From a virus, in IMG/VR virus record IMGVR_UViG_3300042902_000064, positions 1 to 64,000 of that record: a DNA stretch of 64,000 bases. One strand, given 5' to 3'. The translations under genes were made by a program, and so were the position numbers. Under the pieces are notes generated by a model. The model was given only the letters and a program-made list of their open reading frames with translations. It was not told the DNA's origin and ran no database searches. Shown in pieces: positions 1,331-60,336 of the stretch (its first letter is position 1; every line of letters starts with the position of its first letter).

Positions 1331-2071
1331 ATGTCAACATTACCAAAATGGGATGAAGCTCGCGAAGCAACTTTAGTAGGTCTAGTAGGTGCAGTATCAG
1401 CGGCAGAAGTAACCAATCAAGCAGTAGAATCAGCAGCAACTGCGTTAGAAACATCTACTCGTTCAGTAGCATCTAAACTACGTCGTATGGGCTATCCAGT
1501 AGAATCATCTGTTAAAGAGCGTGTAAAAAGCTTTACAGATGCAGAAGAAGCAGAATTAGCGGCTTTCGTTGAAGACAACAGCGGCTCGTTTACTTATGCT
1601 GAAATTGCGGCATCAGCACTAGGCGGCAGTCATACTGCTAAATCAATTCAAGGTAAACTTTTAAGCATGGAATTAACTTCTCATGTTAAGGCTACTCCGA
1701 AGCAAGAAATTGCTAAAAAATATTCTGAAGCAGAAGAAGCTACGTTTATTTCAATGGCACAAAGTGGCGCTTTCATTGAAGATATTGCGGCTAAATTGAA
1801 TAAACCAATTCAATCAATTCGCGGTAAAGCTCTTAGCTTAAACCGTCAAAGTGGTTTAGATATCCCTAAACAGCGTGAGTCAACTGCTAAATCAGTAGTA
1901 GATCCTTTAGCTGGACTAGATAATATCTCTGAAATGACTGTAGAAGAAATCGCAGATACCATTGATAAATCAGAACGTGGCGTTAAAACAATGCTTACAC
2001 ATCGTGGTTTGACTGCTAAAAACTATGATGGTGCTAAAAAAGCAGCAAAAATTGCAGAACGTAAAGACTAG
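1331..2071 (+). CDS. hypothetical protein built from about four tandem ~50-55-aa helical repeats (DNA-binding-like)
   Basis: Internal repeats of the type W/Y-x-E-x-E..L..V.....IA..L.RS..SV..KL. The same domain occurs once each in the ORFs at 55780-56199 and 58767-59123. Confidence 0.6.
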   Translation: MSTLPKWDEAREATLVGLVGAVSAAEVTNQAVESAATALETSTRSVASKLRRMGYPVESSVKERVKSFTDAEEAELAAFVEDNSGSFTYAEIAASALGGSHTAKSIQGKLLSMELTSHVKATPKQEIAKKYSEAEEATFISMAQSGAFIEDIAAKLNKPIQSIRGKALSLNRQSGLDIPKQRESTAKSVVDPLAGLDNISEMTVEEIADTIDKSERGVKTMLTHRGLTAKNYDGAKKAAKIAERKD

Positions 2072-2863: not shown

Positions 2864-4279
2864 ATGGCAACAGACATTTCAGGAGTAGTGCTGCATAAGT
2901 TACTTTCTAGCCCAGAGGAAGCACTGGAAGTATTTCCAAAGCTTAAACCTTCTTTCTTTGGTGCTGGGTATATAAATATTTATACAGCAATAACTAAGTT
3001 TTACACAAAAAGAAATGCTCTACCCTCTTTCTACGATTTATTATTAGTTAGCAGGGATGGGCTAACAAAAAATAGTATAAAATCTTTACAGGAACTAGAA
3101 GTTCCAGAAGATATTGATTGGCTTCTTTTAATAGAAGCATTGATTGACCAGTATACTCAAGATGAAACATTAACAAAATTAGATAAGTTCCTAGACAATA
3201 TAACGTCTATGGATACTCAAGAGATAAAACAGAAGCTAACAGACATTGTCTTCTATCTAGAAGAGAAAACACACGTAGCAGAAGAAGTTTATACTGCCGC
3301 AGACTTAACATTGGCAGAAGATGAAGAGTTAGGGGCTAGAGTTCCTTTAGGGATTAATAATACGTTTGACGCTTTAACAGGTGGTATAGCGCTATCTGAG
3401 TTAATATTTATAGGTGGAGAGCGTGGCTCTGGTAAGTCTATTGTTGCTGTAAATATAGTAAACAATCAATACTTACAAGGTAACGTATCTGCTCTATTTA
3501 GTATTGAAATGAGAGCGCAAGAAGTTTACTGGCGTATGTTATCTTCTATGGCAGGTGTGAGATTTTCTGCTATTAGAAAGAATACATTAACAGATGTAGA
3601 AGTAGGAAGAGTGGCTAAAGTTGTTAGTGGTATGTATGTCGATAGTTCGGAACTGTATGAGAAATTTGTTTCTAACAGGGATTACAAAGAACTAGAGAAA
3701 GCGCTATCTTCAACTAAAAGACTGAAGCCAGAAAACCAGTTAGTAATTATTGATAACCAGCAATTAACTTTGGCTGATATTGATATGAACATTCAAAAGT
3801 TAAAGTCACAGGCTGGTGATAAGCTAAAAGTAGTAGTTGTAGACTATGTTAATCAAATTGAAATTGAAGACATATACAACTGGCAGTCTCAAATTACCTT
3901 GTCTAAGGGGCTAAAGAACTTAGCTAGGAAGCATAATATTGTTATAGTTGCTCCATACCAAATAGATAAAACTGGCGAGGCTAGGTTCGCCAAAGGACTG
4001 CTTGACGCAGTAGATATGGCGATTACGTTAAAAGCTGGAAAGGATTACATTGCTTTTGAAACTACGAAAGTTCGTAACATACCTGCAACTAAGTTCGCAA
4101 GTGGGATAGATTGGGAAACCTTGAATATATCCCCACAGGATGCGGTTATTGCATCAGATGATGCAGTTGAGCCTTCTGAGGACGAAGAGAAATCTAAGTT
4201 CAAGAAGAAACCTAAGAAAGATGCTGAGGGTTACATAGTTAAAGCCGGAGAGCAAAAACCAGACGATTTACCATTCTAA
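2864..4279 (+). CDS. DnaB-like replicative DNA helicase
   Basis: RecA-type core with Walker A GGERGSGKS and Walker B VVVVDYV, and a DnaB-like N-terminal helical region. It sits immediately upstream of the primase. Acidic/basic tail ends in PDDLPF. Confidence 0.8.
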   Translation: MATDISGVVLHKLLSSPEEALEVFPKLKPSFFGAGYINIYTAITKFYTKRNALPSFYDLLLVSRDGLTKNSIKSLQELEVPEDIDWLLLIEALIDQYTQDETLTKLDKFLDNITSMDTQEIKQKLTDIVFYLEEKTHVAEEVYTAADLTLAEDEELGARVPLGINNTFDALTGGIALSELIFIGGERGSGKSIVAVNIVNNQYLQGNVSALFSIEMRAQEVYWRMLSSMAGVRFSAIRKNTLTDVEVGRVAKVVSGMYVDSSELYEKFVSNRDYKELEKALSSTKRLKPENQLVIIDNQQLTLADIDMNIQKLKSQAGDKLKVVVVDYVNQIEIEDIYNWQSQITLSKGLKNLARKHNIVIVAPYQIDKTGEARFAKGLLDAVDMAITLKAGKDYIAFETTKVRNIPATKFASGIDWETLNISPQDAVIASDDAVEPSEDEEKSKFKKKPKKDAEGYIVKAGEQKPDDLPF

Positions 4280-17963: not shown

Positions 17964-18236
17964 TTAGGGGGCTACTGGTATTCTGCTAACTAAAGAATCT
18001 ATGGCTTTAAAGGCAGAATTTCCTACACCTTTACCGCTATCTAAGCTAGTAGTTAAACTACAGTCTTTATCTATAGAAATAGAGCCATCTGTTATATCTC
18101 TAGAAGATGATATCTCTAAAGTACAGCCTGTTTCAGTTCTTGCATACTTGTACGCTGCGCCTCCTCCTGAGGTACCAGGAGATAGCGCACATGCAGTAAG
18201 TATAAAACAAGTTAAAAATATAATTATATATTTCAT
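17964..18236 (-). CDS. small lipoprotein
   Basis: Signal peptide MKYIIIFLTCFILTAC with lipobox LTAC. Its ATG overlaps the patatin stop codon (ATGA). Confidence 0.7.
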   Translation of the reverse strand: MKYIIIFLTCFILTACALSPGTSGGGAAYKYARTETGCTLEISSSRDITDGSISIDKDCSLTTSLDSGKGVGNSAFKAIDSLVSRIPVAP

Positions 18237-19084
18237 TTAGTTAAAAACTCCAAAGTAGCTTTCCAACCACTTTGAATTAAAGCATCTTTATCTTTATCCT
18301 TTAACTTAAAATCCATAGCAGATATACTTCCACAATCTACGATGATTGTTTTAGCCCAGTCTCTTTTAGAGATGTGCTTAGTTTGTAAGCTATCGTAAAT
18401 TACATTAAATATATTTATAGAATACTGTAAAACATTATTATGTTTATAGATATGTTCGCCCTTAATTTCCTCTGAAGTTTCAAGTTTAATACCTATAGTA
18501 TCTCCGCCTTTTCTATCAAAGAAGTTAATTGGGTAGTTATTTAAAACTCCACCATCAATATATAAATGCCCCTCTAGCTCTACAGGGACAAAAACGAAAG
18601 GAATTGACATGCTAGCCCTACATGCCGTAACTATGGACATACTAGGGTGTGTTTCTTTTGAGAAAACTACCTGAGTTCCTAAGTCTAAACACGTAGCTGC
18701 TATATAAAGGTTCTTACTGTTTTCAGCATTTGCAAGCTCTGCAAATGTACAATGCCTGTTTCCAGTATAAGCCTCTACTATACCTGCTAGCCAATGCTCA
18801 AAGAAATCTCCTTTATGTTTTCCATATTTGGAAACAAAGCGATAGGTGTCTCTAAGGGCACCGAAGCTATCATCTTTGAACTCTGTGTAGTCTATAGACC
18901 TTAAGGCTTGCTCTATCTCATTAGATGTCATACCTAAAGCTAGGAACACAGCAGCGATTGCTCCGGCTGATACACCAAGAACGTTTTCTATCTGATTGAG
19001 CTGATTCTGTGAGGAGAGGGCTGAGAATACTCCAGCATATGCTATACCTTTAACTCCTCCGCCCTCTAATACTAAATTTTTCAT
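18233..19084 (-). CDS. patatin-like phospholipase
   Basis: Oxyanion-hole motif GGGVKG, nucleophile elbow GVSAG (GxSxG), catalytic Asp motif DGGVLNNYP. Confidence 0.85.
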   Translation of the reverse strand: MKNLVLEGGGVKGIAYAGVFSALSSQNQLNQIENVLGVSAGAIAAVFLALGMTSNEIEQALRSIDYTEFKDDSFGALRDTYRFVSKYGKHKGDFFEHWLAGIVEAYTGNRHCTFAELANAENSKNLYIAATCLDLGTQVVFSKETHPSMSIVTACRASMSIPFVFVPVELEGHLYIDGGVLNNYPINFFDRKGGDTIGIKLETSEEIKGEHIYKHNNVLQYSINIFNVIYDSLQTKHISKRDWAKTIIVDCGSISAMDFKLKDKDKDALIQSGWKATLEFLTK

Positions 19085-35798: not shown

Positions 35799-37208
35799 CT
35801 ATGGAGTAGCGAAATATCTAACAAGTAATTCATCAGTAGTATCAATGTCCTGACCTAGAGCTGAGAAAGAAATATCTAACCCAAGAACGTCGGCAGTAGA
35901 TACTGCAGGAATTACCAAGTGTGTATGTTTCATATCAAACTCTACACGAGGAGTGGCGTTTCCACCAATTTTTAACAATAGCTCAAATTCTTGAGTAACT
36001 GTAGACGTATCTGAAACTAGGTCAGATAGTAAACCACCAGAGTTATTAGCGCCAGTGTTTAAGTAACAAGTTACACTTCCTGATACACTACGTGCGCCAG
36101 TGAAAGAACCAATAGGTGTGTTAACAACCCCAAGTTCTTCAGGAGTTAAGAATGTAACACCATTATCGATAGTTAAAGAACCACCAGTAATAGCGACTGT
36201 GTATGCTTTAAGAGTACCAGTTCCACCAGTTTGAGCACCAAGAGCAACAAACGAAGTAGTATCTAATGTAGTAAATAAATCATTTACTCCAGGCTCTGTT
36301 ACTGCAATACTTGAGCTAGCTCCTGAAGTTATAGAAGTAACAATTAAGTCTCCATCAACTAAAGCAATGTAAGCGTTATCTAGTTGTTGATTTATTTCAT
36401 TAATTACATCTGCTACTGTTCCTCCAGTAAGTACTGGAGATGTTGCTGCTGGGTCAATAGAAATAACTTGAGCTGCTCCACCGTCCACTGCAATCTCTGC
36501 TGTATAGATTGTAGCATCTACAAGAGTATGGAGGTTAGTAGTTAATAGAGTATTTCCAAAATCTACTGTCCAGTAAGCTGATGTGGTTCCTGTAGCTTTG
36601 CTTAAAGACATAACAGAAAGTTTATTAGTTATAAACTCTGCTGCTGTATCAATAGCTAGGAATTCTCCTGTTGTAGGGTAGGCTCCTGTTGCTTTCTCAG
36701 TTACTGCAGTTCCTTGACCAGACCATGCAATTGAAGCAATACCATCAATAGAGAAATCTACTTCAGCAGTATTAACAATTACATCTTCTACAAGATATGT
36801 AGTATTTTCTAAAACAAAGTAGAATTGTAGTTTTAATAGTTGATGAACGTTTGAATTTTCAAAGTCAGCCTCAAAATAGGTAGCACCAGATACTGTATTA
36901 GTATTTAAAGGCCCAGAACCTACTAAAGCTTCCCAAAGCACACGCTCTACAGCATTATGAGTAACATTATAAAAAGGTCTAGCATATGTGCTAATAGATA
37001 TAGCCGCTGGGTTTAACGCTGTATTAAAGATTTTCTTACCACGAACAGGTGCTTCACCTGCTTCTGATAAGGTAACTTCCTGCGTTGCTGCATCTTGTGA
37101 GAATGAGTATCCGTCTAATACAGGGATCTCAAACGTGTTGGCTGTTGACCAGCCAGTTTTAACAGTAGAAACATATAGTTTAGTACTGCGTGATAGGTTT
37201 AAAGACAT
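35799..37208 (-). CDS. major tail tube protein (T5 pb6-like)
   Basis: 469 aa. The N-terminus MSLNLSRSTKLYVSTVKTGWSTANTFEIPVLDGYSFSQDAATQEVTLSEAG closely resembles my memory of the T5 pb6 N-terminus. Its position upstream of the chaperones fits. A strong terminator follows. Confidence 0.75.
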   Translation of the reverse strand: MSLNLSRSTKLYVSTVKTGWSTANTFEIPVLDGYSFSQDAATQEVTLSEAGEAPVRGKKIFNTALNPAAISISTYARPFYNVTHNAVERVLWEALVGSGPLNTNTVSGATYFEADFENSNVHQLLKLQFYFVLENTTYLVEDVIVNTAEVDFSIDGIASIAWSGQGTAVTEKATGAYPTTGEFLAIDTAAEFITNKLSVMSLSKATGTTSAYWTVDFGNTLLTTNLHTLVDATIYTAEIAVDGGAAQVISIDPAATSPVLTGGTVADVINEINQQLDNAYIALVDGDLIVTSITSGASSSIAVTEPGVNDLFTTLDTTSFVALGAQTGGTGTLKAYTVAITGGSLTIDNGVTFLTPEELGVVNTPIGSFTGARSVSGSVTCYLNTGANNSGGLLSDLVSDTSTVTQEFELLLKIGGNATPRVEFDMKHTHLVIPAVSTADVLGLDISFSALGQDIDTTDELLVRYFATP

Positions 37209-40190: not shown

Positions 40191-42125
40191 CTACACTGCG
40201 TAGTTTAACACTGAAGCACCAACACTACCGATGATAGGTATGAACCCCATTCTACGAGAAGCAACTAATACATTTCTCTGAAATTCAATATTTTTATCGC
40301 GTTCCATCATTAAACCACGTAATTCACCTTTGATGAAGTTTGCAGTATTAACCGCCACAGCTGCTGCATTACCTGAAGCAATTGCAGCGAACTCACCAGA
40401 AACAATAACGGCAGAACCATTAATTGAACCAACTTGACCAGTTAAGATAGTAGCATTAGGCATACCAACTTTATCTACAGTACGGAAATCCGCATCTTCG
40501 ATTAAGTCGTAGTATACTTCAGCACTAACAACATACATAACGTCTGAAGGATTAAGACCACGAATACCTAAACCACGACGAACTGTTTGCATGATTGCTG
40601 CAGTTGCTTTATCACCGCCACCAATAGATAGTGTAGTAACAGCATCACCACCAGCATCTGTTGCTAGTTTGCAGATACCTTTGATTGGGTCTGATGCGCC
40701 AGACCCTAAACCACGAAGAATCGCTTGGTCAGATGATTTAGCCATTCTGCGAGTAACTGCATCTTGGATAATAGGAAGTAAAGGAATGATTGAATCTTCT
40801 TCTTCTTCATAACCTAAGTACTCTTTAGCAGCTAGTTTATAAGCTGTTAATGTAGTATCAGTGATGTCATGTTCAGCAGCAGTACCAGTAGAAGCAGCAG
40901 TTTCGTTATATGCTGCTGAACCAATCCATTGACCGTAGCCAGCTTCAGGGTTAATTGGTAAGTGCATTTTGTTGCTTGACATTGCGATGTTACGGAACAA
41001 AGGCTCAACAACTAACTGTCTACGGATATCCGCTAACAATGTTGTAGAGAATTGTTGTTCCCAATCTTGTGTTAATGCTGAGTGATGGTCTGAAGGTGCT
41101 TTTTCTAAAAGTCTGCCTGCATAGGCTGTAGCCATTGCAGATTTACCTAGAATTTTACCTAATAGAACAGCGCTATTAGCGTCAACGCGTGCAATTTCTA
41201 CGCTTGATTTTTCTTCAAACTGCATTTTGCTTTTTTGCATAGCAATAACTTCGTTTGATTTTTCTTTTAATTCAGCACGTAAACCTGTAAGGGTTTCGTC
41301 TAAACCTTTTTCATTGTCTTCGAAACGTTTTGTTAAGTCAGCAATTAACTTCTCTACGCCCGAATCTCCAACAACAATTGTTGCTGCTGCTTTATCTGCT
41401 GCTGCTTTTTCTGTAACTTCTAAAGCTTTAGCAGCGATAGTAGCATCAGCGATGCCTTTTGCGATTGCTGCTTGAATTTCTTCTGGTGTCATTTGTATCT
41501 CCGATATTTTTGTTTTTGTGGATTTCGTATTTTCTGTTTCTGATACAATTGTACCTTTTTCAGCAGCTACGTTTTCCGGTTTAGTTAGGTTATCAGACTG
41601 CTCCTCTTTAGGAGAGAAGTCCTTTTTGAACTCGCTGCATTCTGCCGCCGAATCAAACTGTTTTGAAACACTAAAAGTACTATGTTGGTTAGCAGGTACG
41701 CTTACAACAGACACTTCCATTAGTTCCAAATCTTTAATTACGAAAATATCAGTCATACTATCGTAATCAGCATCTTTAACCATAAAGCCTACACTGAAGC
41801 TTTTTAAGATACCTTCTTTAATCAAACTATACATATCACCAGCAGCTTTACTAATTTCCGCTGTAATAAATAATCCCTTAGAGCTAACTGTATGGCTAAC
41901 CATTTTACCAATAGGTTTATCATGTTTGTGATAGCCTAGGATAATTGGGTTGTTTAAGTAGTCTGAAAGTCCGCCTTTAGACCAAGCTTCTTCTAATATT
42001 ACGTCGCCACTTCTATCTTTATCAGTAGTATTAGCCCAACCTGAGATAGTTAATGTTTCGTTATCTCCCTCAGCTTTTTCAGTAATGGCGAAGTTAGACG
42101 TTAGCTTTAATAGCTTTTTTGTCAT
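40191..42125 (-). CDS. prohead protease - scaffold (delta) - HK97-fold major capsid protein in one ORF
   Basis: The N-terminal ~170 aa looks like an HK97-type prohead protease (DRSGDVI, GYHKHD.PIG, FSVGF, EVSVVSVPAN). An Ala/Glu/Lys-rich coiled middle follows. The C-terminal ~300 aa is HK97-like capsid sequence. Confidence 0.75.
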   Translation of the reverse strand: MTKKLLKLTSNFAITEKAEGDNETLTISGWANTTDKDRSGDVILEEAWSKGGLSDYLNNPIILGYHKHDKPIGKMVSHTVSSKGLFITAEISKAAGDMYSLIKEGILKSFSVGFMVKDADYDSMTDIFVIKDLELMEVSVVSVPANQHSTFSVSKQFDSAAECSEFKKDFSPKEEQSDNLTKPENVAAEKGTIVSETENTKSTKTKISEIQMTPEEIQAAIAKGIADATIAAKALEVTEKAAADKAAATIVVGDSGVEKLIADLTKRFEDNEKGLDETLTGLRAELKEKSNEVIAMQKSKMQFEEKSSVEIARVDANSAVLLGKILGKSAMATAYAGRLLEKAPSDHHSALTQDWEQQFSTTLLADIRRQLVVEPLFRNIAMSSNKMHLPINPEAGYGQWIGSAAYNETAASTGTAAEHDITDTTLTAYKLAAKEYLGYEEEEDSIIPLLPIIQDAVTRRMAKSSDQAILRGLGSGASDPIKGICKLATDAGGDAVTTLSIGGGDKATAAIMQTVRRGLGIRGLNPSDVMYVVSAEVYYDLIEDADFRTVDKVGMPNATILTGQVGSINGSAVIVSGEFAAIASGNAAAVAVNTANFIKGELRGLMMERDKNIEFQRNVLVASRRMGFIPIIGSVGASVLNYAV

Positions 42126-52821: not shown

Positions 52822-54114
52822 TTATTCAGTTAAGTTAGGTGCATAGGAGTAAATCATATACCTTATCGCATCCGCCATGTGACTGTATTCGTTGTGTTTC
52901 GGCTTTTCCCTTTCAAGACCTGTTTTAGACTCCCAGCTATAGTTATTCAATGCAGCAATACATTTAACACATCTAGGGTCTACCTTAAGTCTATCATTAT
53001 CTATAAGCGAAGCTACGAAACCAATACCGTCTAGAACAGACTTATTACTTTTAATAGTTGTAATATCGTATGTCATTGCCAAGTCCGCACGCGTCTGGGC
53101 TGCTGCGGAGTCTATGTAGAAGAGATCGATATCCCACTTCTCCATCAACACATGTATTCTCTCAGCATGTGCTTCAGTAGATTTTTGCACCATTTCATAC
53201 TCATCTACAATATAGATATTATACCCGTCTGTAACGGCGACACAAACAGCTGTAGGATCCTTGTACCCCATATCTATCCCGCCAATTACGTCCGAAACGC
53301 CTAACATGCTAAGGTCTATATTAGTAACCATAGTTTCTGTATTAAACGCCCATATTTTTCCTTGTAAAACACTGAAGTCAGCATAGTACTCCTGCCTCCA
53401 TTCCGCATCGCTCATCGACTTCTGAGCTGCTAGAATGTCTGCTTCTAATGCTCTAGGGTTTTCATGCCAATCTGCATGTATAGTAACCCAGTCCGAAAAC
53501 TCCTCGGAAAAGCCTCTATCAAAAACAGTACTAAACCAGTTTTTACCACGAGGCGTACTAATAAAGATACACTTGCTGTTTAGCTTATCTAGTGTTGGAC
53601 GTAGTTGTATATTGAAAGCATCGCCTCCCTTATCGGCGAGGGCAGCTTCATCAAATATAATAAGATCATACGATCTACCAACAACGGAATCAGGCTGACT
53701 AACAGACCCGACACGAATTGTACTACCATTAGTAAGTTCGATAATCTTGTCTTTAGCATTTGATTTGTCCAGCTCTATGTCGAACCTACGAAGTAGTCCC
53801 TTCTGTAGATCCCAAGAAATTGTTGATAGTGAGTAGTTCGGTGCCATTATAAGTACGTTAGCCCCAGGAACTAATGATACTAGGTTCCCTACTACGTTGG
53901 ATATAAATGTCTTACCCACACGTCTACTAAGACATGCAGTTATAAAACGATACTTTGGGTCATTTACAGCGTTTATAACAGCTATCTGAGGAGCATTAGG
54001 TTTAATATCTAACATTGGTAGATAGTTTTCTATTGGGAGCTTTAAGAACCTATCGTTAATATCACGAAGGACAATCTCATCACTTCTTACGTCTGGTCTA
54101 CTTATCGTTAGCAT
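52822..54114 (-). CDS. terminase large subunit
   Basis: Walker A-like CLSRRVGKTF, Walker B LIIFDEAA, and a C-terminal RNase H-like nuclease (GGIDMGYKDPTA, YIDSAA). Confidence 0.85.
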   Translation of the reverse strand: MLTISRPDVRSDEIVLRDINDRFLKLPIENYLPMLDIKPNAPQIAVINAVNDPKYRFITACLSRRVGKTFISNVVGNLVSLVPGANVLIMAPNYSLSTISWDLQKGLLRRFDIELDKSNAKDKIIELTNGSTIRVGSVSQPDSVVGRSYDLIIFDEAALADKGGDAFNIQLRPTLDKLNSKCIFISTPRGKNWFSTVFDRGFSEEFSDWVTIHADWHENPRALEADILAAQKSMSDAEWRQEYYADFSVLQGKIWAFNTETMVTNIDLSMLGVSDVIGGIDMGYKDPTAVCVAVTDGYNIYIVDEYEMVQKSTEAHAERIHVLMEKWDIDLFYIDSAAAQTRADLAMTYDITTIKSNKSVLDGIGFVASLIDNDRLKVDPRCVKCIAALNNYSWESKTGLEREKPKHNEYSHMADAIRYMIYSYAPNLTE

Positions 54115-54392: not shown

Positions 54393-54941
54393 CTATCCAT
54401 TGTTCTTCCCACCTATAATTTGCTGTAGTAAAGAACCGTAGTTTGATGATACAGAGTCCCCAACATTGGTAATTTGTACTGCCGTTCCAACCTTAGTTCT
54501 GCCTAAAGCTTCAACTTCTAGTATTTTAAGTTGCATTTTCATTTCTTCCATTCTCATTTTATGCGCAGCTAGGAGAAGTTCTGAAATATCTTTACTACTG
54601 ACTAGTTCTGTTTCCTCCATCTCCGCCAGCTTAGCGTCGATGACGCTAGACATGGCGTTACTTATGCGACTTCTATTCATATATCCTTGGTCTAGGAAGG
54701 CTTGGTCTACTACCGTGCGTACAGATTTATGACGCATCATTTTTGTGACTTCTTCTAGAGACATACGCATTAGTTTACCTGTCTCTTTTAAATCTAGGCA
54801 TGATAAATAACACTTAGCAAATTCTAAGTGTTCAGGTGATATATTGAACTCTTCGTCTAAGACTGTTGGTTCAGGGCGACTAGAGGGCATTATCTCTAGT
54901 GAGGAATTTTGAGGTTGTGTATCGTAGTTGTCTTCTAACAT
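54393..54941 (-). CDS. putative terminase small subunit
   Basis: Sits upstream of TerL, is helical, and is the first gene after the consensus promoter. I place the start at ATG 54941, because the track start at 55001 is a TTG inside the -35 box. Confidence 0.45.
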   Translation of the reverse strand: MLEDNYDTQPQNSSLEIMPSSRPEPTVLDEEFNISPEHLEFAKCYLSCLDLKETGKLMRMSLEEVTKMMRHKSVRTVVDQAFLDQGYMNRSRISNAMSSVIDAKLAEMEETELVSSKDISELLLAAHKMRMEEMKMQLKILEVEALGRTKVGTAVQITNVGDSVSSNYGSLLQQIIGGKNNG

Positions 54942-54972
54942 GTTTTTTCCAGTATATTTAATTAATACGACC

Positions 54973-55001
54973 ATTATACAACAAGTGTGTGCGAATGTCA
55001 A
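54973..55001 (-). promoter_or_regulatory. perfect sigma-70 consensus promoter (TTGACA-17-TATAAT)
   Basis: On the - strand: TTGACA (55001-54996), 17-nt spacer, TATAAT (54978-54973). Confidence 0.75.
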
Positions 55002-55329
55002 GAAAAATATTTTTGTACCACATAAGTGTATCGATATTTTATTACTTTTTGAAATTGTGGGAGGTATGGTAGGGAGGGGAAGGATTAACGAAGTTGTAAA
55101 TCTCGGGAAACTTTGATAATTTTTTGAGGATTGGGGTGTTTGGTGTTGTGGAAGACAAGTCTCGGTAGCTTTCGCTTATTGGTGGCGGTTGTTGGAAACA
55201 AGGGAAGATTAGGGCATTTGTATTGATGTGTATAGATAGACCTTTCTTATAAAACGAAAAAATCCAAATGGTTTACGCGCGGGTGGGCTCTCCTGCAAGA
55301 ACTGTGCCATGTCTGATAACCGCCCCCAT

Positions 55330-55457
55330 TGGCACGGATCTTGCTAGGGATTCCAGATGGCACGGATCTTGCTAGGGATTCCAGATGGCATGGATCTTGC
55401 TAGGGATTCCAGATGGCATGGATCTTGCTAGGGATTCCAGATGGCATGGATCTTGCC
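55330..55457 (+). repeat. tandem array of 4.5 x 28 bp, each unit carrying a sigma-54 -24/-12-like core
   Basis: Unit: ggca(c/t)ggatcttgctagggattccagat. Cores TGGCA(C/T)GGATCTTGC(T/C) lie at 55330, 55358, 55386, 55414 and 55442. Every unit contains a GATC. Confidence 0.9.
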
Positions 55458-55533
55458 CACGGCATGAGAATTTACACTAACAAAGCTAGGTTGTAACACC
55501 TTGATTTATAAGGAGTTTTTAAGATTTGCGCTG

Positions 55534-55565
55534 ATTTGCGCAAATTTTCGGCTGGTCGAAAATTT
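55534..55565. promoter_or_regulatory. palindrome ATTTGCGCAAAT plus an adjacent 9-bp-stem hairpin, flanked by 19-bp direct repeats
   Basis: atttgcgcaaat at 55534-55545. aaattttcg-gctggt-cgaaaattt at 55542-55565. Direct repeats ttgatttataagga(g/c)tttt at 55501 and 55572. Confidence 0.5.
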
Positions 55566-55660
55566 AAGTCATTGATTTATAAGGACTTTTTATTTTAATG
55601 CGATCTGAAAAATTTTATTTCTGTATAATAAACTCATAGGCAAAGACAAGGAACATTAAA

Positions 55661-55750
55661 ATGATAAAAACAATTTTTTTACTTATTATATCATACGCGG
55701 GTTTTCTCGCGTATAATGTAGGACTGGCAATTTTGCCATTATTGGGATAA
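55661..55750 (+). CDS. possible 29-aa hydrophobic mini-protein (MIKTIFLLIISYAGFLAYNVGLAILPLLG)
   Basis: Read by eye; below the track threshold. AAGGAA SD lies 7 nt upstream of the ATG. Confidence 0.35.
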   Translation: MIKTIFLLIISYAGFLAYNVGLAILPLLG

Positions 55751-55779
55751 CTCCCGCTTTTCAATCTGAGGATCTAAAA

Positions 55780-56199
55780 ATGACAACTTCAACAACTGCA
55801 ACAAAATCAGCGGTCGCCAACTATGACGCGGATACAACTAGCCAAGTGATCAAGGCGATGCAAGGCGTAAAAAACCACGCCGATCAAGTCGCCGCGATCA
55901 TTGGCTTAATGCTATCAACTGGAAAAAATAAAAGGTCTTTAACTGCTAAAATCAGCAACCTGAGCCGCGATGCAGAAAACAAGATCACGTTTTACGGGGT
56001 AGAAAAAAACACCACGAAAACAGGATCAAAGGTAGAAAGCAAAGCGATCAAGGTTCAACAGATCGAAAAATTGATCGGTGGTGGTGTTCAACTTGATAGC
56101 ATGGAGAAATGTACCAAACATGATCTAGATATTATCTTAGGTGCGCTGTCAATGACTGAGGAAGAAATCGCCGACCTTAATGACGATCAAGCAATCTAA
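55780..56199 (+). CDS. DNA-binding-like protein, paralogue of 58767-59123
   Basis: The two proteins align along their length: Y.(D/E)D.T, S(L/V)(T/R)AK(I/L), K(N/T)TK(T/S)G, (L/I)..I..L(I/M)G.....(M/L)EK.TK..L..I. Confidence 0.65.
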   Translation: MTTSTTATKSAVANYDADTTSQVIKAMQGVKNHADQVAAIIGLMLSTGKNKRSLTAKISNLSRDAENKITFYGVEKNTTKTGSKVESKAIKVQQIEKLIGGGVQLDSMEKCTKHDLDIILGALSMTEEEIADLNDDQAI

Positions 56200-56216
56200 A
56201 AACCGTTAAACCTTGC

Positions 56217-56240
56217 AAGGTCGCCGCCTTTGGCGACCTT
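56217..56240 (+). promoter_or_regulatory. intergenic 9-bp-stem hairpin (attenuator or processing site candidate)
   Basis: aaggtcgcc-gccttt-ggcgacctt. Only a weak T-run follows. Confidence 0.4.
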
Positions 56241-56259
56241 CACTTTAGGATCTAAAATT

Positions 56260-56508
56260 ATGAATAACGAAATATACGATGACTCGATAGAAAACTATAA
56301 TCAAACGATTATAACAGGACTCGAAATGGTTGCGGCGATCTTAACGGTGGCTGGCTTATACTTACTTACTATAGGCGTCGCGCTTGGGTTTATTTTAGGC
56401 GCGTTGGGTTGCGTGGCTTGGCTGATTGTTGCGTTAAGCAATAAGTTATACTATTTAGCCGCCTTAAACGTTGCCCTTTTTATTATCAACGTATCAGGTG
56501 CGATATAA
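56260..56508 (+). CDS. small integral membrane protein (about 3 TM segments)
   Basis: I place the start at ATG 56260. It is preceded by AGGATCTAAAA, the same RBS context as gene 55780. The sequence has hydrophobic stretches. Confidence 0.6.
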   Translation: MNNEIYDDSIENYNQTIITGLEMVAAILTVAGLYLLTIGVALGFILGALGCVAWLIVALSNKLYYLAALNVALFIINVSGAI

Positions 56509-57206
56509 TGAAAAAGCAATTTTATATTATAGTAGACACTGAAACGACAGAGGAAGATACGGTCGCGGACTTTGGCGCGGTGGTATGTGATCGGCACGGT
56601 GTGATCTTCCACGAGATCGGCGTACTTGTCGCGGGTGAATTTGGCGAGAAAAAACTGTTCCACGATCAGAACAGTAAATTAGAGATCTGGAACATGAGAG
56701 GCTTACAAAGAAGAACCGAAAATTATAATAGTATGCTTAACAGCGGATCGCGGGTACTGGCAAGCGTTAATGCGATCAACCGCTGGTTAGACAAAGCGAT
56801 CAGCTTATACAATCCTGAGCTGACAGCGTATAATCTAGCCTTTGATCTTGGAAAATGTGCGAATACTGGAATTGATCTCACTCGCTTTGATCGTCGTTTT
56901 TGCCTTTGGCAAGCGAGCGTGGGTAATATCTGTAACACGAAAAAATACAAAAAATTTGTTTTAGATAATCACTACTTCAACAACAGAACCGAAAAAGGCA
57001 ATATGACGATCCAAACTAGCGCGGAGCGCGTCACTCACTTTGTGACGGGCGCGGATCTTACTGAGCCGCATACAGCCTTAGAAGATGCGCGAGACTTTGA
57101 GCTAAAAATATTAAAGCACATACTAAAGAAGCGGGCTTGGCGTGAAAATATGAGACCGTATAGCTGGCACGACCATCAACTAAATAACCATTTTTCCGCT
57201 AATTAA
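56508..57206 (+). CDS. DEDDh (DnaQ-like) 3'-5' exonuclease
   Basis: Exo I IIVDTETT, Exo II AYNLAFD, Exo III HTALEDARD. Confidence 0.8.
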   Translation: MKKQFYIIVDTETTEEDTVADFGAVVCDRHGVIFHEIGVLVAGEFGEKKLFHDQNSKLEIWNMRGLQRRTENYNSMLNSGSRVLASVNAINRWLDKAISLYNPELTAYNLAFDLGKCANTGIDLTRFDRRFCLWQASVGNICNTKKYKKFVLDNHYFNNRTEKGNMTIQTSAERVTHFVTGADLTEPHTALEDARDFELKILKHILKKRAWRENMRPYSWHDHQLNNHFSAN

Positions 57207-57257
57207 ATAATCAACTAGCGCGATCCCGAAAGGGATCGCCACTTGGGGCAAAATAAA

Positions 57258-57743
57258 ATGAAAAATAAAATTATAACTTTTGATTTCGATGGCGTGCTTG
57301 CTGATAGCTCGAATCGTTACCAACTAGCAAAAACCGAACCGCACGAAAAACCACGGATCGATCTTCAACACTGGCGCGATAATTCTCATAAAGTAGCGGA
57401 GGATCTTCCTATAGCGGAAAATATCGCGCTTTATAACGCGGCGATCAAAGATCCGACCGTGGTGGTCGTTATCGCGACCGCTAGGGTATGGTGTGAACTT
57501 TCGGATCGGTGGGTCTTTGATCATCTTGATGCCTTTCCAGATTACCTGAGCCATAGGATCAACGAGGAAGATCAACGACCTGCCAACGATATAAAAGGCG
57601 TTTTTGTTGCTTCACTTTTGCAGATATACAAATCAATAAAAACGGTCGTATTTTATGATGATAATCTAGAATACTTAAAACAATTTAAGCAAGCGATACC
57701 ACACGCTGAAACGATTCATATATTGAGCAATCAAGGGTACTAG
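57258..57743 (+). CDS. HAD-superfamily 5'(3')-deoxyribonucleotidase-like phosphatase
   Basis: ITFDFDGVLADS (DxDGV motif I, as in the NT5C family DMDGVLADF). VIATAR and YDDN resemble motifs II-IV. I place the start at ATG 57258. Confidence 0.65.
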   Translation: MKNKIITFDFDGVLADSSNRYQLAKTEPHEKPRIDLQHWRDNSHKVAEDLPIAENIALYNAAIKDPTVVVVIATARVWCELSDRWVFDHLDAFPDYLSHRINEEDQRPANDIKGVFVASLLQIYKSIKTVVFYDDNLEYLKQFKQAIPHAETIHILSNQGY

Positions 57744-57746
57744 ACT

Positions 57747-57833
57747 ATGAAAATTTTCTTTTCTGGCATGGCTAAATTGATATTTTTTATTATTATCTTG
57801 TTTTTACTTGTTACTTTTACCTTACCGATCTAG
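57747..57833 (+). CDS. possible 28-aa hydrophobic mini-protein (MKIFFSGMAKLIFFIIILFLLVTFTLPI)
   Basis: Read by eye; below the track threshold. It lies 3 nt after the stop of the phosphatase gene and just before the terminator. Confidence 0.35.
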   Translation: MKIFFSGMAKLIFFIIILFLLVTFTLPI

Positions 57834-57844
57834 CACCTGAGGAC

Positions 57845-57879
57845 AAAAAAACCCGTTATTATATAGCGGGTTTTTTTTT
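57845..57879. terminator. bidirectional rho-independent terminator
   Basis: A7-acccg ... cgggt-T9. Confidence 0.7.
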
Positions 57880-57895
57880 GCCAAAAATAAAAACT

Positions 57896-57911
57896 TGGCA
57901 CGAATTTTGCG
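57896..57911 (+). promoter_or_regulatory. solitary sigma-54 -24/-12-like element TGGCACGAATTTTGCG
   Basis: Matches TGGCACG-N4-TTGC with exact GG/GC spacing. A weaker copy, TGGCATGGCGTTAGCC, lies at 57918-57933. Confidence 0.45.
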
Positions 57912-57944
57912 CCAAAATGGCATGGCGTTAGCCATTCATTATAT

Positions 57945-58033
57945 CGCGCCGTAAATGCGAATCATTCTCATTTAGATTTGCACTTAGGTTTACGCCCGCA
58001 AATGTAAATAAGAATGATTCGCATTTGGGCGCG
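57945..58033. repeat. 89-nt inverted repeat (about 33 bp of potential stem)
   Basis: Perfect 16-bp arms aaatgcgaatcattct (57953-57968) / agaatgattcgcattt (58011-58026). Extended outward by cgcgcc/ggcgcg and inward by attta/taaat and atttgc/gcaaat. Confidence 0.85.
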
Positions 58034-58104
58034 CCGAAAAATGCACGGACTCCCACGATACCATGATATCAGGTTACTTGTCCACATGCAAATTTATTTT
58101 ACCA

Positions 58105-58233
58105 TGCAAGAATCATGCCATGAAAAAACAAGCAAGAATCATGCCATGAAAAAACAAGCAAGAATCATGCCATGAAAAAACAAGCAAGAATCATGCCATG
58201 AAAAAACAAGCAAGAATCATGCCATGAAAAAAC
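58105..58233 (-). repeat. tandem array of 5 x 26 bp carrying sigma-54 -24/-12-like cores on the - strand
   Basis: + strand unit: gcaagaatcatgccatgaaaaaacaa. Its reverse complement contains TGGCATGATTCTTGC(T/A). The core is the same as in the 55.3-kb array but in inverted orientation. Confidence 0.9.
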
Positions 58234-58461
58234 GTCAATTTTTTGACGCGTCAATTTTTTGACTGTCAATTTTTTGACGCGTCATTTTTTTGACGTCAAT
58301 TTTTTGACTGTCAATTTTTTGACGCGGCATTTTTTTGACGTCAATTTTTTGACTGTCAATTTTTTGACTGTCAATTTTTTGACGCGGCATTTTTTTGACG
58401 CGTCAATTTTTTGACGCGTCATTTTTTTGACGTCAATTTTTTGACGCGTCAATTTTTTGAC
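58234..58461. repeat. 15 tandem copies of a 14-nt unit GTCAA-TTTT-TTGAC (spacers 0-2 nt)
   Basis: 11 x GTCAATTTTTTGAC, 2 x GTCATTTTTTTGAC, 2 x GGCATTTTTTTGAC. The 5-nt arms are reverse complements of each other. Confidence 0.9.
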
Positions 58462-58591
58462 GGTAGCACAAAAAGCGCAAGCTTTTTGCGCCAGTGCGCA
58501 ACTGCAATTTTTTTCAAGTGCATGAGTGCCGTGGGGGCAGGTGCGTGCAGACAGTGCCAGAGCGACATATGTCAAGTAAATATTTTTAAAC

Positions 58592-58620
58592 TTGATTATA
58601 GTTCCTGATCGGCGTATAAT
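58592..58620 (+). promoter_or_regulatory. sigma-70-like promoter TTGATT-17-TATAAT
   Basis: Hexamers at 58592-58597 and 58615-58620. Confidence 0.6.
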
Positions 58621-58680
58621 AGTATTTATCAGATGAGGAAAGTTTCAAGAAGTAAGTACCACCCAACGAAAAAATAGTTC

Positions 58681-58709
58681 TTGACTTCTGACCTCATCAA
58701 GCGTATAAT
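58681..58709 (+). promoter_or_regulatory. sigma-70-like promoter TTGACT-17-TATAAT
   Basis: Hexamers at 58681-58686 and 58704-58709, about 58 nt upstream of ATG 58767. Confidence 0.7.
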
Positions 58710-58766
58710 ATATATATTGAATTGGGAAATGGTTCCCAATCATCGAATTCCTTGGAGGAACGTACC

Positions 58767-59123
58767 ATGACTGACAAAGCTAAAGTAACAGGTGCTCGTT
58801 ATACTGAAGATCAAACACTAGAGTTGGTAGAAGCATATACAGCCGTTGAAACACAAGAAGCACGCGACGCAGTGGTATCTACTTATGCCGCTAAGTTCGA
58901 ACGCCCAGTAGCCTCCGTTAGAGCGAAGCTCGCATCTGAGCGGGTTTATGTACCTAAAGCTAAGACTACTAAATCTGGCGATCCTATCGTTCGTAAAGAC
59001 CAGCTAGTAGCTCAAATTGCCCACCTAATGGGTGAGTCAGAAGAAGCGGTTGAGTGCCTAGAAAAGGTTACTAAACCTGTACTACAAAAAATCATCACTC
59101 AACTAACTTCCCCTTGGGAGTAA
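58767..59123 (+). CDS. DNA-binding-like protein, paralogue of 55780-56199
   Basis: I place the start at ATG 58767, with a GGAGGA SD. See the alignment motifs listed for 55780-56199. The N-terminal domain also resembles the repeats of 1331-2071. Confidence 0.7.
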   Translation: MTDKAKVTGARYTEDQTLELVEAYTAVETQEARDAVVSTYAAKFERPVASVRAKLASERVYVPKAKTTKSGDPIVRKDQLVAQIAHLMGESEEAVECLEKVTKPVLQKIITQLTSPWE

Positions 59124-59141
59124 AGTTCTCTTGAACAATTA

Positions 59142-59166
59142 AGCCTGCCTTGTGCAGGTTTTTTTG
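59142..59166 (+). terminator. rho-independent terminator
   Basis: cctgc-cttgt-gcagg followed by T7. Confidence 0.7.
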
Positions 59167-59200
59167 TGCCCAAAATAAATGACCTCTCCCAGCCTGCGCC

Positions 59201-59230
59201 ATTATACGCCTCCCAAATACTTTTTGTCAA
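59201..59230 (-). promoter_or_regulatory. sigma-70 consensus hexamers TTGACA-18-TATAAT on the - strand, facing the 3' end of gene 58767-59123
   Basis: TTGACA (59230-59225), 18-nt spacer, TATAAT (59206-59201). Confidence 0.55.
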
Positions 59231-59500
59231 GTCAATTTCAAACTCAGTTTTTCAAAAGTGCATAGTCTGTTTTTGTGTAGTCTATTTATACCGCCCCCTC
59301 GGCGCCAGTGCTCAACTGTAAATTTTCAGGGCGCCCATTATAACACACAGACATACATAGTTGTCAACTGTGTTTTCCGGCAGTGGGTTGCCCAGATTTT
59401 AAGAAGAGGGAAGTCTGTCCCGTGTCCCAGGACTAGGGACACCAAGCAATTACTTTTTTGTAAATGTCAAGTATTATTTCTCCCCAATTGTATATAACTG

Positions 59501-59532
59501 CCCCTATCCGCCGCTTCGCGGCTAGACGGGGG
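59501..59532 (+). repeat. conserved ~33-nt hairpin element, copy 1
   Basis: CCCCTATCC-GCCGCTTCGCGGC-TAGAC-GGGGG: an inner GCCGC/GCGGC stem and an outer CCCC/GGGG stem. Confidence 0.6.
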
Positions 59533-59557
59533 AGATAGGTTAATATAAAGTTGGATA

Positions 59558-59595
59558 ATCCCCAATTTGGGGATCATCGTACCCAATTTGGGGAT
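59558..59595 (+). repeat. two tandem copies of (C)CCCAATTTGGGGAT
   Basis: atccccaatttggggat at 59558-59574 and tacccaatttggggat at 59580-59595. A related ccccaattg lies at 59482. Confidence 0.6.
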
Positions 59596-59858
59596 GATGT
59601 GATGAGAGCCATAGGTATACCTCTTACTTTCTGAGTTGTGAAGATTCAGGCAAAAGTGGTGTTCCCCAAACTAAGAAAACCTACAACAATTACACAATCG
59701 AGGAAGATCATATGGTGAATTATTTTTTTACAATGAGGAATTCTGAAACTTTCAAAATTTTGTGCAGGAACCGAACAAATAGGGGAAATATCGCTATTTT
59801 ACACATATCAACAATAAAACCCGTATTTAGGAAATAAGTGCCCTTTTTGAGCAGTAAT

Positions 59859-59893
59859 CCCCCTATTTGCCGCTTCGCGGCAGGTTGGGGAGG
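59859..59893 (+). repeat. conserved ~33-nt hairpin element, copy 2
   Basis: CCCCCTATTT-GCCGCTTCGCGGC-AGGTT-GGGGAGG, in the same orientation as copy 1. Confidence 0.6.
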
Positions 59894-60133
59894 TTATAGA
59901 GGTATTCTGCATATTTGGGCAGGTTATAACACTTATCTACCGTAATTCACTTGATTGGGGAATTATATGCGGTAATTTACAAAATAGCGCCGAAATTGAT
60001 CTGGCAGCGCCGATTTTCAGACTTGAAATCTTGAGCCGCTGCTTTCTAATGATTTCAGGGTAATATTCAGGGCAGATATACAGAGCTATCTAGTAGTAAG
60101 TGTGAAATCGTGCAGTACAAAACATACAGACAT

Positions 60134-60156
60134 AAAAAAGCCCCAATTAAGGGGCT
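60134..60156 (-). terminator. rho-independent terminator ending the - strand operon
   Basis: On the - strand: AGCCCC-ttaatt-GGGGCT followed by T6. Confidence 0.7.
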
Positions 60157-60162
60157 GATTGT

Positions 60163-60336
60163 TTATCTGTAGCTAGAGTCTATATACTTTTTGAGTTTTA
60201 CAACTTCACCAGCTAGCTTAGTGTTTAGTGCGGCACTTCTAGCCAGCTGGTCACTTAGTGTATCAAGGTATCCTATTGCCTTATCTAATTCAGTCTCTAG
60301 TATCTCTACACGTCCTTCAAGTGTTATGTTTGACAT
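60163..60336 (-). CDS. possible 57-aa coiled-coil protein (MSNITLEGRVEILETELDKAIGYLDTLSDQLARSAALNTKLAGEVVKLKKYIDSSYR)
   Basis: Read by eye; below the track threshold. AGGAGAA SD upstream. The terminator follows directly. Confidence 0.5.
   Translation of the reverse strand: MSNITLEGRVEILETELDKAIGYLDTLSDQLARSAALNTKLAGEVVKLKKYIDSSYR

Follow-up and report, generated by a model that had tools for sequence, protein, structure and literature searches.

Convergent arrays of a sigma-54-like promoter core around a putative pre-early gene cassette of an uncultured T5-like phage

Two convergent arrays and their setting

The 64,000-nucleotide stretch of viral DNA analyzed here (positions 1 to 64,000 of IMG/VR record IMGVR_UViG_3300042902_000064; hereafter, the window) contains, next to its terminase genes, two convergent arrays of a short core that resembles the -24/-12 promoter element recognized by sigma-54. 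The first, array 1 (Table 1), had been described in the initial annotation as a tandem array with a 28-bp period, 4.5 copies and a sigma-54 promoter-like core in each unit. Period, copy number and cores are as described, with the end coordinate off by one base; Tandem Repeats Finder reports 98% matches, a score of 240 and the consensus unit TGGCATGGATCTTGCTAGGGATTCCAGA. TGGCAYG-N4-TTGC is present in every unit, with units 1 and 2 reading TGGCACG-GATC-TTGCT, units 3 and 4 TGGCATG-GATC-TTGCT, and the truncated unit 5 TGGCATG-GATC-TTGCC; the array 1 version of the core is TGGCAYGGATCTTGC. Units 1 and 2 carry the full TGGCACG-N4-TTGCW and also fit, at all specified positions, YTGGCACGr-N3-TTGCW, reportedly the extended sigma-54 consensus derived by Barrios et al. 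in 1999. All five cores lie on the + strand and are oriented toward the + genes beginning at 55780, with 324 bp separating the array from the first of these genes and 330 bp separating it from the start of TerS.

Array 1 proved not to stand alone but to be paired with an inverted counterpart. With 0.17 matches to TGGCAY-N5-TTGC expected, the window has 12, a count that none of 100 dinucleotide-preserving shuffles reached, although copies in tandem do not arise independently; for TGGCAYG by itself, 16 matches compare to 7.2 expected. All 12 cores are confined to 55295-58224 and represent four independent versions, namely, an inverted single core at 55295, array 1, a single core at 57896, and array 2, which lies on the opposite strand. 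Array 2 converges with array 1 across 2.65 kb and a four-gene cassette, is antisense to that cassette, and differs from array 1 in unit length and in non-core sequence. The copy at 57896 is ambiguous because the hairpin in which it is embedded may itself account for it. In an independent assembly of the same phage (L253, 485-583; 99.96-100% identical), array 1 has four cores instead of five, so that the copy number is either variable or not reliably assembled; another independent assembly, L254, spans exactly array 1 to array 2.

Table 1. Features of the terminase-proximal region of the window
Feature	Position	Strand	Description
TerL	52822-54114	-	48% identical to TerL of Vibrio T5-like phages
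TerS, small terminase subunit	54393-55001	-	phrog_3802, E 4.6e-30; transcribed away from array 1
Single core	55295-55309	-	TGGCACAGTTCTTGC(A); inverted, 20 bp upstream of array 1
Array 1	55330-55456	+	4.5 x 28 bp, five cores TGGCAYG-GATC-TTGC(T/C); away from TerS, into cassette
GATC island	55337-57827	.	44 GATC in 2.5 kb, bounded by arrays 1 and 2
Leader	55494-55730	+	Between array 1 and first gene
139-aa protein	55780-56199	+	Weak paralogue of A2-like protein, BLASTP E 4e-5; homologue in L002
92-aa membrane protein	56230-56508	+	Weak PnuC-like similarity
232-aa protein	56508-57206	+	phrog_20187; weak DNA polymerase exonuclease subunit match; N-terminal DTET motif
166-aa HAD-type phosphatase	57243-57743	+	phrog_415, the PHROG family of T5 dmp (deoxynucleoside-5'-monophosphatase)
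Single core	57896-57910	+	TGGCACGAATTTTGC; inside hairpin + T-run 57894-57916, terminator-like on - strand
Palindrome	57953-58026	.	29-nt arms, 93% complementary; contains GAATCATTC, then GGCGCGCC
Array 2	58106-58233	-	4.9 x 26 bp, 100% identity, five cores TGGCATG-ATTC-TTGCT (TGGCATGATTCTTGC)
Array 3	58233-58462	.	About 15 copies, period 14-16, palindrome CGTCAATTTTTTGACG; abuts array 2
Two sigma-70-type promoter-like sites	58592-58709	+	TTGATT-17-TATAAT and TTGACT-17-TATAAT; upstream of A2 homologue
A2 homologue	58722-59123	+	phrog_1725, E 4.7e-8; T5 A2 DNA-binding protein itself E 4.3e-52

The -24 GG and the -12 GC are exactly ten bases apart in all 12 window cores. Among the independent copies, the spacer differs (GATC, ATTC, GTTC or AATT) and TGG, CA and TTGC are constant, the remaining variation falling at two positions where natural sigma-54 promoters also vary (C/T and G/A). 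The initial annotation had proposed a comparative check of whether GG and GC are the conserved positions. In independent copies, in relatives and in more than 100 viral contigs, the -24 and -12 elements and the distance between them are held constant while the spacer sequence changes, which is the outcome that this check named.

The setting of the arrays is that of a T5-like phage. In T5 and in the Vibrio phages VF16 and PVo5, the gene order is TerL, TerS, a receptor-binding gene, and the terminal repeat with dmp, A1 and A2. The window has homologues of dmp and A2 just past TerS and TerL, as in the T5 terminal repeat, and on these grounds 55.1-59 kb most likely represents, in collapsed form, the terminal repeat with the pre-early (first-step-transfer) genes of an uncultured T5-like phage; we infer that this region is terminally repeated and would enter the host first. 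This context had gone unrecognized in the initial annotation. The link to A2 comes solely from PHROG profiles; a tblastn search of the two A2-type proteins against phages gave no match, and no A1 homologue was found in the window. The true start of the A2 homologue is probably the ATG at 58767. Homologues of the 232-aa protein (55-62% identical) adjoin A2-like genes in four related loci (L034, L128, L087 and L111). The rest of the window holds a T5-like replication set comprising a DnaB-like helicase, a primase, a family A polymerase, an SbcCD-like pair, a flap endonuclease and ribonucleotide reductase. Megablast and blastn found no DNA similarity to known phages, and hence no annotated homologue of the arrays. 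Contig break points, tried as a guide to the limits of the terminal repeat, were uninformative, the contigs of relatives and of the same phage breaking at tandem arrays. A tRNA search of the window found none, and no Rfam family reached its gathering score within 54900-60300.

The leader between array 1 and the cassette contains two 28-nt direct repeats with TTGATT (55494-55521 and 55565-55592) and TATAAT-type -10 elements, TGTATAAT near 55625 and CGTATAAT near 55712; these sigma-70-type sequences were read by eye, and a promoter scan gives weak matches there.

The initial annotation placed a Dam methylation site, the GATC of the spacer, between the two recognition elements of every unit. This spacer is peculiar to array 1, with ATTC in array 2 and GTTC, ATTC or ATAA in relatives, and belongs to a region-wide GATC island; Dam methylation was accordingly rejected as a feature of the motif. 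The island holds 44 of the 114 GATC sites of the window. Base composition predicts about 3.5 per kb; the density is 17.6 per kb in the island and 1.09 per kb outside it. The island is also rich in CGCG (6.3 per kb, compared to 0.41 outside) and GCGC (4.8 per kb, compared to 1.1). The same cassette is GATC-enriched in L002 (15 GATC in the first kb), and no such enrichment was seen in L087, L128, L034, VF16, PVo5 or the T5 repeat. The island may be part of the same entry-stage device as the arrays.

Several other features of the window were recorded. After the A2 homologue, about 1 kb (59124-60162) lacks a convincing open reading frame (ORF). A GC-rich, hairpin-like repeat of 31 nt, beginning CCCCTATCCGCCGCTTCGCGGC, occurs there twice (59501-59531 and 59860-59890), as does, at 59561-59598, the short direct repeat CCCAATTTGGGGAT. 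A 246-aa ORF at 1331-2071 (+) has a sub-threshold match to Sigma-70 region 4 (PF08281, E 8e-5, 22.6 bits against a cut-off of 25.7) and may encode a phage transcription factor; it adjoins a gene for a BRCT-domain protein (584-1327). Elsewhere, genes were identified for a patatin-like phospholipase (18233-19084, -; PF01734, E 1.8e-35) and for a protein of 644 aa in which a prohead serine protease is fused to a major capsid domain (40191-42125, -).

The core in relatives and other viral contigs

The closest relatives retain the core to different degrees. L002, with a TerS 68% identical to that of the window, has four TGGCATG sites at the homologous position, two of them followed by TTGC and two by TTGAC or TCGTC. 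L001, with a TerS 91% identical, has at this spot one variant site and an inverted single core, kept at the equivalent of 55295 as TGGCATGGTTCTTGC, and no array. Eight further T5-like metagenomic loci (TerL 50-58% and 232-aa protein 55-62% identical) carry 2-6 cores each, always intergenic and beside A2-like genes: about 35 bp upstream of the called A2-like ORF in L111, 120 bp upstream in L056, and between two A2-like genes in L087 and L128. In L111, a consensus sigma-70 promoter separates the A2-like gene from the two cores; this gene probably starts near 3480, downstream of that promoter of its own.

Among cultured phages, carriers of the core infect Vibrio, a genus that has rpoN. VF16 has 3 cores in the 11.8-kb locus L009, all inside the right terminal repeat as defined by PhageTerm, where 0.05 would be expected; 50 kb of its unique DNA has no core. 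Two of the cores form a convergent pair that brackets DnaA boxes. Array 2, L002 and VF16 have the sequence TGGCATGATTCTTGC(A) in common without a mismatch, even though the A2 proteins align very poorly (tblastn E 0.57, BLASTP E 0.002). The VF16 cores lie 6-9 kb from TerS, compared to 3.1 kb for array 2. One VF16 site, TGGCACGACTTTTGCA, matches without a difference, for 16 nt, the nifH promoter DNA of cryo-EM structures of RNA polymerase with sigma-54 (PMC6028918, PMC9770992), and this stretch is conserved in 60 Vibrio phage records; this site and the convergent pair are contained in L009 8885-8940 and 11060-11380. The DnaA box TTWTNCACA occurs 3 times in the window (7.3 expected), with none in or between the arrays and the nearest at 59797, about 1.3 kb beyond array 3. 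The phages thus form an apparent replacement series, from T5 with DnaA boxes alone through VF16, which combines them with cores, to the window phage with cores alone.

Other repeats accompany the cores. A module consisting of a palindrome, GGCGCGCC and a core is present in the Vibrio phages VF16 and PVo5 and is rearranged in the window (57953-58036), and short palindromes, GAGAATGATTCTC and similar, occur in L001 and L111. Array 3 occupies the position of the DRD repeats of T5 and of the TAGGTGCAAAATCTA repeats of VF16, and its half-unit TTTTTGAC also terminates the variant cores TGGCAYGRTTTTTGAC (L001, L002 and VF16) and TGGCATGCTTTTTGAC (L083). The TerS-proximal noncoding DNA of the clade of the window phage is packed with other, lineage-specific tandem arrays (in L111, 2920-3290, four copies each of a 30-bp and a 36-37-bp unit; in L002, 1585-1640, four copies of TAGACTTCGT); unlike the sigma-54-type core, none of those in L111 and L002 is kept between lineages.

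Beyond the T5-like phages, IMG/VR was scanned for two cores 5-35 bp apart. Tandem cores with the N4 spacer were found in at least 120 viral contigs, forming at least 107 non-redundant groups (the matches listed are L011-L130), and the same scan with a spacer one base longer (N5) yielded 2 contigs. At the positions left free, 406 distinct sites among the matches listed have Y before TGG in 89%, R after TGGCAYG in 81% and W after TTGC in 90%. The free positions thus follow the extended consensus reportedly derived by Barrios et al. in 1999, which strengthens the likeness to sigma-54 sites. Same-orientation neighbors peak at a spacing of 26-28 bp, like those of arrays 1 and 2. Many of the listed contigs have 3-9 cores within 300 bp; in L025, L031, L040, L051, L063, L069 and L102 the orientation alternates every 19-25 bp, and some regions of L068, L060 and L072 contain 14-21 dispersed cores. 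A scan of bacterial genomes returned at least the matches listed, which were mostly simple pairs and gave no clue to the host. One of them, from a Leptonemataceae metagenome-assembled genome (L172, 3168-7834), has 77 core matches on one strand with a strict 21-bp period, probably a coding repeat of 7 residues.

These comparisons bear on whether array 1 could be a recent slippage duplication of one 28-bp unit that has no function and resembles sigma-54 sites by chance. Such expansion would fit units that are 98-100% identical, as expected of recent events, the copy number of 5 versus 4 between assemblies, the lack of an array at this spot in L001, the abundance of lineage-specific tandem arrays nearby, and the bacterial coding repeat that mimics the motif 77 times. 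Yet it is the core, and not the rest of the unit, that array 1 has in common with array 2 and with the single copies at 55295 and 57896, and the same core recurs in relatives, in Vibrio phages and throughout the IMG/VR set, from which the N5 control drops to 2 contigs. We consider chance duplication very improbable. The resemblance to sigma-54 sites noted in the initial annotation holds and is reinforced by the independent copies, the relatives and the viral contigs.

About half of the matches listed belong to an uncultured podophage-like clade with an SU10-type portal, at most 25% identical to those of cultured phages, and a T7-type primase-helicase. The arrays of this clade are invariably found in the divergent region that separates the early operon from the structural/terminase operon, headed by the gene in the TerS position (e.g., L043 7131-7200; L031 8237-8447; L045 9491-9733; L090 5312-5497). 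The sites are directional: among the matches listed, 130 of 159 sites are oriented toward the early genes, and 32 of 33 loci show this bias. With respect to TerS, array 1 is arranged in the same way. The protein encoded in the TerS position of this clade (c1) shows no detectable relation to A2 (hhalign probability 0.2%) or to the T5-like TerS (3.3%), and a phage DNA-binding protein common to the array-bearing clades was rejected for both candidates. That neither A2 nor TerS is common to the two clades favors a host factor of universal specificity.

A phage protein, either A2-like or TerS, might nevertheless bind the cores in second-step transfer, in A2 autoregulation or in recognition of the packaging end, with the sigma-54 likeness a coincidence. 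Packaging sites are often located beside TerS and are directional, as are lambda cosB and SPP1 pac, and array 1 begins 330 bp from the TerS start, just as the podophage-like arrays abut the gene in the TerS position. Every T5-like locus examined has sites adjoining A2-like genes (L111, L056, L087 and L128), and the window itself combines two A2-type paralogues with two arrays. The recurrence of TTGAC in place of TTGC in L001, L002, L083 and VF16 and the variable orientation of sites relative to genes would likewise suit a different binding protein. Against such a partner, the core of 15-16 nt has stayed constant in array 2, L002 and VF16 despite the divergence of A2, and it occurs in a clade that lacks an A2 homologue and whose TerS-position protein is unrelated as far as hhalign detects. 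Furthermore, T5 has both A2 and TerS and yet lacks the motif, the VF16 sites are far from TerS, and a phage protein gives no reason for free positions that follow the extended consensus or for the fall from at least 120 contigs to 2 upon insertion of a single spacer base. We consider binding by a phage protein unlikely, while regarding it as the main rival to sigma-54.

Promoter, platform and the T5 injection stop signal

We consider it fairly probable, from the motif and its distribution, that sigma-54, as holoenzyme, is the binder, with that probability divided roughly evenly between use as a promoter and use as a silent platform. The -24/-12 specificity of sigma-54 is essentially universal among bacteria with rpoN, which would explain how the motif has outlived the surrounding sequence and every candidate phage partner. 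The fuller reading, in which array 1 and the inverted array 2.65 kb away are high-affinity sigma-54-type sites bracketing the pre-early dmp/A2 cassette, stands in our judgment at about an even chance.

If sigma-54 is the binder, host holoenzyme already present in the cell would dock on the entering DNA and form stable closed complexes without a cofactor. In its geometry, array 1 resembles a stack of early promoters, which would fire only with an active host enhancer-binding ATPase; early expression would in this way be tied to the state of the host, on top of the putative sigma-70 promoters of the cassette itself. Array 2 would form a mirror bank at the distal edge of the cassette, next to the 15-copy palindrome array and at the place that corresponds to the injection-stop repeats and DnaA boxes of T5. 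Both the binding of holoenzyme and the firing of array 1 are what we infer from sequence.

The initial annotation offered a stacked sigma-54 promoter for the cassette as one option. For array 1 this option fits the geometry, which matches that of 32 of 33 podophage-like loci; it does not extend to array 2, which points the opposite way, and it meets a cassette with sigma-70-type promoter-like sequences of its own and no activator found. In Escherichia coli, sigma-54 sites can be bound in a transcriptionally inactive state, and some sigma-54 mRNAs have 5' untranslated regions of 360-760 nt (PMC4591121). With such long leaders known, the 324 bp from array 1 to the first gene support a promoter role.

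A number of observations weigh against sigma-54 binding, or against promoter use in particular. No enhancer-binding ATPase (bEBP) was found by a GAFTGA search of the window and of 1.1 Mb of related loci, Pfam scans, which covered 8 ORFs in and around the cassette and the 20 largest of the window outside that region, detected no Sigma54_activat domain, and no upstream activator sequence was recognized; an activator encoded by the host is possible. Both the leader that follows array 1 and the DNA in front of A2 contain sigma-70-type promoter-like sequences, and T5 is reported to use sigma-70 holoenzyme only (PMC7472727). Array 2 faces the 3' end of dmp and the cassette, with a hairpin and T-run about 200 nt downstream on the - strand, so that a simple cassette promoter leaves this array unexplained. 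Units 26-28 bp apart are probably too close for holoenzyme to occupy all of them simultaneously, as judged from the sizes of holoenzyme footprints. In the T5-like phages, the orientation of cores relative to genes is mixed (L128 and L034 have them in sense orientation, and L087, like the window, in antisense orientation after the cassette), the sites always adjoin A2-like genes, which is compatible with binding by A2, and some copies in relatives retain TGGCAYG with TTGAC or TCGTC replacing TTGC. The T5 terminal repeat has no sigma-54-type cores above chance. In the viral-contig set, the conservation of core positions is partly imposed by the search pattern, and L172 illustrates that a repeated coding unit may resemble sigma-54 sites fortuitously.

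The only GSFTGA in the window, in the ORF at 35799-37208 (-), was judged a chance occurrence: the ORF has no Pfam match, and its homologue in L059 lies beside structural genes. An effect of rpoN on the Salmonella T5-like phage Aji_GE is indirect, via RpoS and glutamine (PMC8744999).

The nearest known counterpart to the layout is in T5, whose left terminal repeat regions and injection stop signal (iss) were reportedly described by Heusterspreute in 1987 and Wang in 2005. The T5 left terminal repeat contains an inverted pair, IRC-spacer-IRD and IRD'-spacer-IRC', about 3 kb apart and with paired DnaA boxes, along with palindromes and nine DRD repeats, and these elements are candidates for the injection stop signal (10.1101/866236). 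As in T5, the window has untranslated repeats in its putative pre-early segment by dmp and A2, beyond TerL and TerS; an inverted repeat pair flanking these genes (2.65 kb apart here); an array of short repeats at the distal edge with palindromes (15 palindromic 16-mers here); and, within the repeats, host-protein binding motifs, which are putative and of sigma-54 type in the window. The two differ in that the DnaA box, which is the host motif of the T5 repeats, is absent from the arrays and from the DNA that separates them; the window also lacks DNA similarity to T5 and an A1 homologue, and the likeness is one of sequence layout.

This likeness underlies a further possibility, that sigma-54 holoenzyme binds and the arrays never fire, serving instead as a docking or anchoring platform or as a sink for sigma-54 during replication. 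As a platform, they would hold or mark both ends of the first-entering segment, a role analogous to the one proposed by Davison for the DnaA boxes of T5. As a sink, they would deplete sigma-54, of which a cell has about a hundred molecules; for the decoy of the initial annotation, the analysis yielded evidence neither in favor nor against. The inverted banks bracket their segment as the T5 inverted pair with its paired DnaA boxes does (10.1101/866236), the convergent cores of VF16 bracket DnaA boxes, and the two motifs replace each other between the window region (12 cores, no DnaA box) and T5 (DnaA boxes, no cores). The lack of a detected activator gene, the sigma-70-type promoter-like sequences that already serve the cassette, the 26-28 bp spacing peak, which suggests close packing, and the stable binding of sigma-54 without firing (PMC4591121) also agree with a silent platform. 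On the other hand, a sink or an anchor needs no direction, yet 32 of 33 podophage-like loci orient most of their sites to early genes; the DnaA model for the T5 injection stop is itself a proposal, and two-step injection is putative here. Single sigma-54 sites within E. coli genes do not act as roadblocks and do not repress (PMC4591121), which counts against this platform and also weakens the roadblock or insulator put forward in the initial annotation. We regard a platform that never fires as a minor but real possibility.

Relation to known systems and to phage biology

In sequence, the cores agree with established sigma-54 promoters such as Sinorhizobium meliloti nifH and E. coli glnAp2, with GG and GC ten bases apart, TGGCAYG-N4-TTGCW and Y/R/W flanks, and array 1 lies upstream of same-strand genes at a distance known for sigma-54 mRNAs. 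The phage arrangement differs from these promoters in that 5-6 copies stand head to tail at 26-28 bp with a second, inverted bank, one bank is antisense to the nearest genes, no enhancer-binding gene or activator site was found, and sigma-70-type promoter-like sequences intervene between array and gene. To our knowledge, phage use of sigma-54 is almost unexplored, the single known case being Pseudomonas phage YuA, whose sigma-54-dependent late promoters are said to have been demonstrated experimentally by Ceyssens et al. in 2008; unlike the arrays described here, the YuA promoters are single sites for late genes, but as a precedent they speak for a promoter role. The early promoters of T7 (A1, A2 and A3) and of N4 stand in tandem on the leading end of the genome. 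They resemble array 1 as co-oriented RNA polymerase sites that head the first-expressed genes and diverge from the late and packaging genes, but depend on sigma-70 or on the virion RNA polymerase, need no activator, are at least 100 bp apart and have no inverted partner.

The intragenic sigma-54 sites of E. coli are consensus-like, bound in an inactive state and often far from gene starts, as the sites considered here may be, but they are single, dispersed and chromosomal, whereas those of the phage cluster on the early region of a virulent genome; decoy or other non-canonical roles have been discussed for the non-promoter sites of E. coli (Bonocora et al. 2015, PMC4591121). CtrA boxes in alphaproteobacterial phages offer another example of phage expression tied to the state of the host via a conserved host factor, although the factor is a different one and the boxes are single and promoter-proximal, not in arrays (PMC9437464). 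Our literature search found no paper linking sigma-54 to T5-like phages or to arrays of this kind. Sigma-54 promoters, the repeats of the T5 terminal repeat and stacked early promoters are each known separately; close-packed, partly inverted banks of consensus sigma-54 sites on the pre-early or early DNA of phages were described in none of the papers searched.

Alone among bacterial sigma factors, sigma-54 holds RNA polymerase on DNA in a stable complex that stays silent until it is fired by an ATPase. Given the banks in Vibrio T5-like phages and in the IMG/VR contigs, the arrays look like a widespread and previously undescribed phage route to host RNA polymerase. As a tentative and still doubtful generalization, many tailed phages, from marine gammaproteobacterial T5-like phages to podophage-like ones, may carry banks of sigma-54 sites on their first-expressed or first-entering DNA, where closed complexes would act either as an activator-gated switch or as a clamp in first-step transfer. 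As a switch, the bank would let the phage read the state of the host (membrane stress, nitrogen status or motility) before committing; as a clamp, in T5-like phages, it would replace the DnaA boxes proposed for T5.

If real, this would be a general, overlooked interface of transcription between phage and host. For T5 biology, in which the stop of first-step transfer has been an open question for decades, sigma-54 would be a candidate host factor at the injection-stop and terminal-repeat elements of relatives without DnaA boxes. Cultured Vibrio phages (VF16, pVp-1 and the Ceto group) and tractable rpoN hosts make the idea directly testable.

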